64,000 bases of DNA from Bacillota bacterium (lineage in GTDB: Bacteria; Bacillota; DTU025), in NCBI GenBank assembly GCA_050951805.1, contig JBMNJT010000002.1, forward strand, positions 960,001 to 1,024,000. Direction: 5' to 3'. Positions 60,696 through 61,087 of the stretch are shown here, piece after piece (position 1 is the stretch's first letter; the number at the start of each line of letters is the position of its first letter). The translations under genes were made by a program, and so were the position numbers. The notes beneath the pieces were generated by a model. The model saw nothing but the letters and a program-made list of their open reading frames with translations, was not told the origin of the DNA and did no database searches.

Positions 60696-61087
60696 GAGGT
60701 TTACGGCGGTCGAGCGAAGACCCACAATGGATCTGATCATATCGCAAGGTGTCGGGTCCATTGTGCGTCGAGCAAAGGTCGGTTGCGGCTTTAAGCAGGA
60801 CCGCAACTGGCCGGAGCTAAGATCGTTGCAGGTTGGCCAACTTATGGCGGCGGTTGATGAGATCGTCGTTGTAGGGAAACCTATCTGCAGCGGTCGAGCG
60901 AAGATCAGCGTACGAGCGAAAGTGTGGTGTTGCAGTCGAGAGACTGCAGCATGATGCCCAAGTTCGGACGTTGGTCGATCAAAGGTTGTTGCATTCCGTG
61001 AACCGGCTGCTCAGTGCCGAAAGGTGTTGGGTAGTCGCAAATCGGGATGCAGCAGCCGGAGAGCAGATCGTCGTGAGCCTCCTTTTT
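60696..61087 (+). ncRNA. Unrecognised large structured ncRNA: six-way star junction with repeated GAGCRAA-like linkers
   Basis: 16-bp closing helix 60696-60711/61066-61081; five long arms with many G-U pairs and GNRA loops (GCAA, GAGA, GAAA); followed by CTTTTTG. Confidence 0.85.

Follow-up and report, generated by a model that had tools for sequence, protein, structure and literature searches.

A six-way-junction RNA with an internally repeated linker module and a candidate forespore-type promoter in Bacillota

We analyzed a 64,000-nucleotide window of a Bacillota bacterium genome (assembly GCA_050951805.1, contig JBMNJT010000002.1, positions 960,001 to 1,024,000 of the forward strand) and find at window positions 60696-61081 (+) the gene of a structured non-coding RNA of about 386 nt whose family has no catalogue entry. 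The RNA begins GAGGUUU, is closed by a long-range helix, P1, and carries five arms that meet P1 in a six-way junction whose single-stranded linkers repeat one purine-rich word. Its neighbors vary and it has a candidate promoter and a probable terminator of its own, and it is therefore a stand-alone gene. On this evidence the element represents a new RNA family whose junction is unusual in being built of internal repeats. Its parts are as follows, in window coordinates.

60696..60711 (+): 5′ strand of the closing helix P1; 16 pairs, 11 with compensatory changes
60712..60718 (+): linker J1, GAGCGAA, read from the sequence
60719..60769 (+): arm 1, a hairpin of variable length, from folding and pair counts
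60770..60776 (+): linker J2, GAGCAAA, read from the sequence
60777..60812 (+): arm 2, a 36-nt hairpin, from folding and from covariation counted from the junction outward
60813..60820 (+): linker J3, GGAGCUAA, read from the sequence
60821..60895 (+): arm 3, an unbranched hairpin of 75 nt (15+15 bp) interrupted by a 4x4 internal loop CCAA/GAAA
60896..60902 (+): linker J4, GAGCGAA, read from the sequence
60903..60976 (+): arm 4, 74 nt, with internal loop GAAA/CCAA and a GAGA tetraloop
60977..60983 (+): linker J5, GAUCAAA, read from the sequence
60984..61057 (+): arm 5, 74 nt, 15+15 bp with a 5x5 internal loop and a GAAA tetraloop
61058..61065 (+): linker J6, GGAGAGCA, read from the sequence
61066..61081 (+): 3′ strand of P1, pairing with 60696-60711
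61082..61094 (+): U-rich tract CUUUUUGCUUUUC after P1, read from the sequence, a probable terminator tail

The initial annotation had paired this structure by hand, and all of its coordinates and linker sequences are present in the window. RNAfold recovers the same closing helix and five arms with a minimum free energy of −219 kcal/mol, compared to a mean of −137.1 kcal/mol (sd 5.24) for 100 dinucleotide shuffles, none of which folds as well (z −15.63). The reverse complement reaches just −113.3 kcal/mol (z −2.08), and the structure therefore belongs to the + strand, where the modeled fold depends on G·U pairs as expected of RNA. One detail of the hand pairing was corrected: arm 3, drawn as branched, is the simple interrupted hairpin listed above. 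The arms are close to constant in length across homologs, with arm 5 measuring 74 nt in nearly all of them, the inner part of arm 3 spanning 28-29 nt and the distance from AGGGAAA to AAGGTT being 101 nt in 15 of 15 homologs. GNRA tetraloops closed by C-G are kept on arms 4 and 5, the terminal loops of the other arms vary, and A-rich 4x4 or 5x5 internal loops sit at fixed places. The 3′ strand of P1 is followed directly by CUUUUUGCUUUU, and the 5′ end of the RNA is probably at 60696, as judged from the position of the promoter described below. We also note that arms 3 and 4 share the 4x4 internal loop (CCAA/GAAA) in opposite orientation, and that in some homologs this loop changes on both strands together, from GAAA/CCAA to GACC/CUAA.

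Homologs with differing sequences retain this plan. The RNA is present in a single copy in its source genome, and a DNA search gave matches in 15 of 60 relatives, one of which covers just 26 bases and is taken as chance. A degenerate pattern run over 185,579 species genomes returned 34 stretches, all in metagenome-assembled genomes titled almost without exception Bacillota or Clostridia bacterium, and a profile search confirmed 32 of the 34. When 15 homologs were folded as single sequences, 13 gave six-way and 2 gave five-way junctions. Two loci of one family-level group (L011, 1510-1813, − strand; L012, 1426-1757, + strand) are without arm 1 and form a five-way junction of 304-332 nt, retaining arms 3-5 and the site upstream of spoVT.

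Covariation across 32 distinct full-length homologs supports the helices, as the initial annotation had anticipated. Of the 122 pairs that RNAalifold predicted, 72 carry compensatory changes; once the unsupported 2-bp linker helices are taken out, such double changes fall in 72 of 118 pairs, compared to 13-22 when partners are slid by 1-3 columns. Standard pairs fill 98.8% of 3768 cells versus 31.8-49.1% for slid partners, and no observed covariation measure was reached in 500 shuffles. Counted from the hub outward, all six helices show 92-99% canonical pairs versus 21-55% for slid partners. Arm 2 escaped RNAalifold through a one-column error in the MAFFT alignment, the linker of one group being 1 base longer; over its first 10 bp from the junction, this arm is 98.9% canonical versus 27-38% for slid partners in 45 sequences. 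Of 51 sequences, 6 were not resolved into five arms by the automatic parser, and in another 6 it truncated P1, which lowered the promoter and U-tract counts given below. The same homologs argue against translation, in agreement with the initial view that no credible open reading frame (ORF) overlaps the RNA: the three overlapping ORFs tested are not conserved, being broken by internal stops in 28, 30 and 24 of the 32 sequences, and the three codon positions carry similar numbers of substitutions (698/720/760).

We built a covariance model from linker 3 to linker 5 (arms 3-4; 171 positions, 60 pairs) and searched it over whole genomes. Within the window's class, 12 of 21 genomes carry the RNA: 10 of 11 in family f1 plus the window's genome, the single f2 genome, neither the single f3 genome nor any of seven f4 genomes. 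In an even sample of the phylum it occurs in 54 of 151 genomes, about a third (E <= 1e-4). Folding of 19 distant matches gave P1 and five arms (36, 35, 75, 75-126 and 74 nt) in 15, arms 1 and 2 merged in three and a split structure in one. Of the six genomes whose best match is weaker than E = 1e-10, five still fold into clear six-way junctions that carry these linkers, and the parser could not resolve the sixth. Some genomes carry two copies, and no phage, plasmid or viral-contig matches to the RNA were found.

The defining feature of the family is the hub. The six linkers of the 45 parsed homologs are 7 or 8 nt long in 244 of 270 cases, and the 129 linkers of 7 nt follow the consensus GRGCNAA (G 115, R 129, G 80, C 114, N, A 100, A 129, where R is a purine). 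Each helix leaving the hub starts with G-C, then a purine-pyrimidine pair (A-U or G-C), then U·G, so that one module, helix end R-G-Y-C, linker GRGCNAA and helix start G-R-U, is repeated six times. The pseudo-six-fold repetition pointed out in the initial annotation thus extends to distant members, in which the linkers read GAGCCAA, GGCCAAA, GGCGGGCA, GAGCUAA, GAGCAAA and GUAGCGUA or GGAGCAAA, and the same hub is seen in homologs scoring just 27-100 bits. Conservation is strongest in the junction and internal loops, not in the helices, and as its most conserved part the six-fold hub is therefore presumably the functional core. The linker word recurs once more in the 5′ strand of arm 4 (CGAGCGAAAG, 60913-60922). 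RNAfold and RNAalifold both pair the GC dinucleotides of neighboring linkers around arms 1, 3 and 5; these 2-bp helices do not vary among the 32 homologs and are thus without covariation support. In 7 of the class's 12 RNA-positive genomes (for example at G012:C68:2873-2978), a weak match of the arms 3-4 model also falls on arms 1-2 (28-40 bits), and an internally duplicated two-hairpin unit is the probable route by which the RNA grew.

Comparison with catalogued families bears out the initial description of the RNA as unrecognized. The Rfam search, set beforehand as the refuting test, gave no significant match: with the 4227 models of Rfam 15 at gathering score, the window yields just rRNAs, RNase P RNA and tRNAs, with nothing in 60300-61300, and at E up to 10 the RNA draws just chance mir-2996 and SNORA55 rows of 14.6-14.7 bits. 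The 19 distant loci match no Rfam family, and five loci searched at E up to 1 give just two microRNA rows, outside the RNA. A literature search found no description of the RNA; it did not extend to supplementary motif lists and subscription papers, where an earlier mention is possible. The RNA is likewise absent from the accessible portions of PMC11109978, 10.64898/2026.09.22.753630 and 10.64898/2026.09.15.751765.

Upstream of P1 lies a candidate promoter made of two elements.

60661..60665 (+): −35-like element GCATA of a sigmaG/sigmaF-like promoter; G-N-A-T-A stands at the same distance in homologs
60683..60689 (+): −10-like element CATGATA, 17 nt past the −35-like element and 6 nt before P1

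Across the family this region reads G-N-A-T-A, 17-18 nt, C-A-T/A-N-A/C-T-A, ending about 5-6 nt before P1. Table 4 of PMC3416734 gives the B. subtilis sigmaG consensus as GNATA / CAWAMTA with an N17-18 spacer and that of sigmaF as GTATA-N14-16-GGNAANAMTR. The window promoter, GCATA-N17-CATGATA, has 1 mismatch of 11 to the sigmaG model, and at no more than 2 of 11 mismatches this model fits 34 of 44 distinct upstream regions compared to 28 of 880 shuffles (about 3%). The sigmaF model, at no more than 3 of 13 mismatches, fits 31 of 44 compared to 24 of 880 (about 3%); models for sigmaE, sigmaK and sigmaA do no better than shuffles over the same 44 regions, and a promoter scan found no sigma-70-like site on the + strand. 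Six of the poorer promoter scores stem from a wrong parser anchor. From this match we infer a promoter of the forespore type, read by sigmaG or sigmaF.

Downstream, a classical terminator scan found none, P1 being a long-range helix invisible to such a scan. At least 5 T within 10 nt after P1 are present in 31 of 45 parsed homologs; six of the remaining 14 are cases in which the parser cut P1 short and the tract is present, and at least five have a separate hairpin terminator by eye.

The distribution of sigG (TIGR02850) is consistent with a link to sporulation. The gene occurs in 130 of the 151 sampled genomes and in 53 of the 54 that carry the RNA, the exception being G138, a 90%-complete genome. 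Within the class, the family that has no sigG (0 of 7) has no RNA either (0 of 7); also RNA-negative are the sigG-positive family f3 (one genome) and one 72%-complete f1 genome. Relatives are not independent, and we therefore attach no statistic to this co-occurrence.

The RNA is present in RNA samples. Of 22 listed sequencing runs that contain the stretch, 16 are on record as RNA, and contigs from four metatranscriptome runs of four studies (X2, X8, X10 and X12) cover the RNA, in line with the initial expectation of a transcript. Contigs from three studies end at 61077 (X8 60775-61077, X10 60631-61077 and X12 60859-61077). In X12, two contigs cover the RNA (60751-60888 at depth 516 and 60859-61077 at depth 156.5), contig depth is 156-544 over the RNA versus about 3-5 over spoVT, and the second contig runs past 61077 into a loose 17-letter end, which we take to be sequencing adapter; many inserts in this run seem to end at 61077. 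These contigs, which cannot give ends or levels, offer a weak hint that the RNA has a defined 3′ end and is abundant. Gaps in the contig cover of X8, X10 and X12, and the listed runs other than these four, carry no weight in this reading.

No neighbor is common across the family in an all-against-all comparison of 221 neighboring ORFs at 48 loci, in which ORFs were chosen greedily by length and short real genes may be hidden. In close relatives the order is rubrerythrin, a rubredoxin-like gene, the RNA and spoVT; the position upstream of spoVT named in the initial annotation is thus right for these relatives and fails elsewhere, where the RNA follows sigK or lies among unrelated genes. In another group sigK precedes it directly on the same strand, at a distance of 56-176 nt (five loci: L014, L023, L036, L043 and L044). 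Other copies adjoin genes for a chemotaxis receptor, a deacetylase, NYN and EVE domain proteins and yhbH, and further neighbors elsewhere include a histidine kinase, a LysR regulator and a glycerate kinase. The clusters recovered among neighbors are spoVT, sigK, a penicillin-binding protein and one of frames antisense to the upstream rubrerythrin/rubredoxin genes. In the sigK group, we observed that the sigK genes (TIGR02846, 345-352 bits) are preceded by a penicillin-binding transpeptidase gene and that many genomes of the subgroup hold a second copy of the RNA elsewhere.

The reading we favor, at a rough probability of 0.4, is a forespore RNA that works in trans and presents six equal binding sites to an oligomer or to multiple copies of a single protein. 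RNA polymerase with sigmaG and/or sigmaF would make it in the forespore, starting from the promoter ending about 6 nt before P1 and terminating at P1 and the U-tract, and the RNA would act while the spore develops or lies dormant. Most speculative in this reading is the multivalent platform that the six hub modules would form, with the long, length-constant arms as rigid spacers. The scaffold, sponge and self-assembly roles offered in the initial annotation are conjectural in the same way. A more specific picture, somewhat less likely still, is a wheel made in the forespore and stored in the dormant spore, in which the hub modules would hold a protein assembly of six-fold symmetry or would fix the RNA itself in a symmetric particle.

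Several observations weigh against the favored reading. In X2 a single contig crosses 60000-61427 without a break, and in X10 the contig begins 65 nt before P1, ahead of the proposed promoter; read-through or DNA carry-over is therefore possible. The contigs that end at 61077 stop four bases inside P1, not after the U-tract. The forespore assignment of the promoter comes solely from a consensus match. Among RNA-negative sampled genomes, 77 of 97 have sigG, and the RNA is therefore not needed for sporulation in general; the third of genomes counted as positive was obtained with stricter search filters in force, under which the model may miss divergent members. No neighbor points to a partner. 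TRAP and Hfq, named at first for comparison, make poor candidate partners: TRAP (PF02081), HutP (PF09021) and Hfq (PF17209) were not found in the 97%-complete genome, with the Bacillus subtilis control positive each time. Finally, the repeated module could equally serve RNA-RNA packing in place of protein binding.

A sponge for CsrA/RsmA, also proposed at the outset by analogy with GGA-bearing RNAs, was rejected although the CsrA gene is present in the genome: arms 4 and 5 end in GNRA loops and the loops of the other arms vary, and GGA, found in J3 and J6 of the window, is not conserved in distant members (J3 GGCGGGCA, J6 GUAGCGUA).

The packing of RNA on RNA leads to a rather unlikely alternative to the multivalent platform, an architectural RNA that needs no protein and forms a rigid particle, which may assemble into homo-oligomers as reported for ROOL, GOLLD and OLE. 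Linker adenines and the G-C, R-Y and U·G bases of the helices would pack together, for example through A-minor contacts or through UAA/GAN-like loops where alternate arms begin, and GNRA loops would dock into A-rich internal loops. The extreme constancy of arm length, the conserved C-G-closed GNRA loops of arms 4 and 5, the fixed A-rich internal loops, the predicted pairing between neighboring linkers and the lack of a partner gene among neighbors all favor this alternative, and the accessible text of PMC12286853 puts on record large bacterial RNAs that assemble without protein. However, in known self-folding RNAs each junction strand is usually unique, and a word present in six copies rather suggests that a single recognition event takes place six times; the 2-bp linker helices never vary and so lend this alternative no support.

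An improbable alternative is a ribozyme or ligand-sensing RNA of the spore, in which the junction would be the active site or binding pocket by analogy with the flavin mononucleotide (FMN) riboswitch. The peak of conservation in the junction and internal loops, a size and complexity within the range of known ribozymes, and the contig ends at 61077 in three studies, which could mark a processing site, are consistent with this possibility. However, the RNA has no expression platform and no constant downstream gene, as a classical riboswitch would, six-fold repetition is unexpected for a single active site, and no ribozyme or riboswitch model matches.

Highly improbable is a precursor cut at the linkers into five hairpin RNAs. 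Identical words do flank every hairpin, and the two X12 contigs over the RNA are separate and of different depth; yet P1, which a mere precursor would not need, covaries in 11 of its 16 pairs, the X10 and X8 contigs span several arms and linkers, and the breaks between X12 contigs are not at linkers.

Hardly credible is a cis-acting leader or attenuator of spoVT with P1 and the U-tract as a regulated terminator. The gene lies 135 nt downstream on the same strand throughout close relatives, and the X2 contig runs from the RNA into it; however, spoVT is not beside the RNA outside this close group, it has its own sigmaG-like promoter (GCATA-N18-TAAAATA, 61172-61201) between the RNA and the gene, and several homologs of the RNA carry a separate terminator. 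A DNA-level or mobile element, such as a repeat array or a miniature inverted-repeat transposable element (MITE) bounded by terminal inverted repeats, is very unlikely and the weakest of these explanations: the 16 bp of P1 could be seen as a terminal inverted repeat, two copies occur in some genomes and the weak match of arms 1-2 to arms 3-4 points to internal duplication, but the source genome holds one copy, as the initial annotation expected of an element that is not MITE-like, its position is syntenic across genera, P1 changes by compensatory substitutions, many G·U pairs are conserved in a strand-specific fold (z −15.6 versus −2.1), and there are no phage, plasmid or viral-contig matches.

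Set beside known RNAs, the new family shares single features with several of them: in architecture it comes closest to the FMN riboswitch and group II introns, in kind to OLE, ROOL, GOLLD and raiA, and in regulation to CsfG. The FMN riboswitch (RFN element, RF00050) is likewise built of six helices leaving one conserved junction, with internal pseudo-symmetry and junction strands as its most conserved part. However, the FMN element is about 140 nt long, two-fold symmetric and cis-acting before riboflavin genes, in contrast to the roughly 386 nt, long arms, six near-identical linkers and own promoter and terminator of the RNA described here. An FMN riboswitch was rejected, as there is no RF00050 match and the neighbors are spoVT, sigK or unrelated genes, not riboflavin genes.

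Short purine words are repeated in TRAP GAG/UAG, HutP NAG, Hfq ARN and CsrB-type GGA RNAs, and GAG occurs in most linkers of the new RNA. In those RNAs the repeats lie a few bases apart on one strand or in hairpin loops; here, by contrast, the linkers are parted by helices of 35-75 nt and united just by folding.

A small non-coding RNA of endospore formers, named CsfG for its control by sigmaF and sigmaG, was reportedly described by Marchais et al. in 2011, and the tie to these sigma factors, here by promoter match, is shared. According to the available part of PMC3574147, CsfG is 136 nt long, is the ylbH motif read on the other strand and has CU-rich loops. CsfG/ylbH was rejected on size (about 386 versus 136 nt), on purine-rich linkers versus CU-rich loops and for want of an Rfam match.

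Like OLE, ROOL and GOLLD, the RNA is large, highly structured, rich in covariation and found in Bacillota or anaerobes; it differs in its single six-way hub and forespore-type promoter, and the homo-oligomers described in the accessible text of PMC12286853 are of OLE, ROOL and GOLLD, not of this RNA. Its similarity to the raiA motif lies in being a structured RNA of Bacillota with a sporulation link. Disruption of raiA motif RNA (ModT), which is abundant, affects sporulation in Bacillota (PMC10861870), and the motif is present in more than 2,500 species of several phyla (PMC11706538), as the available portions of these papers state. Its fold is different, and the sporulation link of the new RNA comes from promoter and sigG co-occurrence, not from genetics. 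OLE, ROOL, GOLLD and raiA were all rejected, as none of their Rfam covariance models matches.

A six-membered wheel in the secondary structure also recalls group II introns, whose six domains are arranged around a wheel in the accessible parts of PMC3919574 and PMC8637638; unlike them, the new RNA has the closing helix P1. No Rfam intron model matches, the RNA is single-copy at a syntenic site, and scans of neighbors with Pfam and NCBIfam found no reverse-transcriptase family. Group II introns are further marked by a GUGYG 5′ end and a domain-V hairpin. Neither a GUGYG 5′ end nor a domain-V-like hairpin was seen, and this candidate was rejected.

None of the RNA architectures known to us or found in our searches has a comparable six-fold repeat where its helices meet. 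To our knowledge, large bacterial RNAs with strong covariation are few, each one studied has opened new biology (RNase P, OLE, raiA, ROOL and GOLLD), and very few non-coding RNAs are known in the forespore. If the forespore-made wheel is true, it would be an unseen class of large bacterial RNA acting in dormancy, germination or outgrowth across a large part of one Bacillota-type phylum. At about 125 kDa, estimated from length, and probably rigid, the RNA is a defined target for cryo-electron microscopy. It seems to be abundant in RNA samples of uncultured digester lineages and gives a handle on late spore development in anaerobic Bacillota, including these lineages; hundreds of genomes could be annotated with a covariance model derived from it.

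Minor features of the window complete the description of the locus. The spoVT gene probably starts at GTG 61222, not at ATG 61216 of the mechanical ORF list, because a GGAGGG box ends at 61215, 6 nt before this GTG. For the roughly 250 nt from the rubredoxin-like gene to the RNA promoter (60441-60695), inside which the X10 contig begins at 60631, we have no explanation; a GC-rich hairpin at about 60458-60483 looks like the terminator of the upstream gene. Farther along, a thiamine transporter gene (Thia_YuaJ, ThiT type) lies at 63062-63640, and the window has no thiamine pyrophosphate riboswitch at Rfam gathering score. An ordinary class A RNase P RNA (58455-58814, 334.6 bits) lies 2 kb upstream of the new RNA, and a complete rRNA operon (28674-33655) and four tRNAs, all ordinary, are also present in the window.

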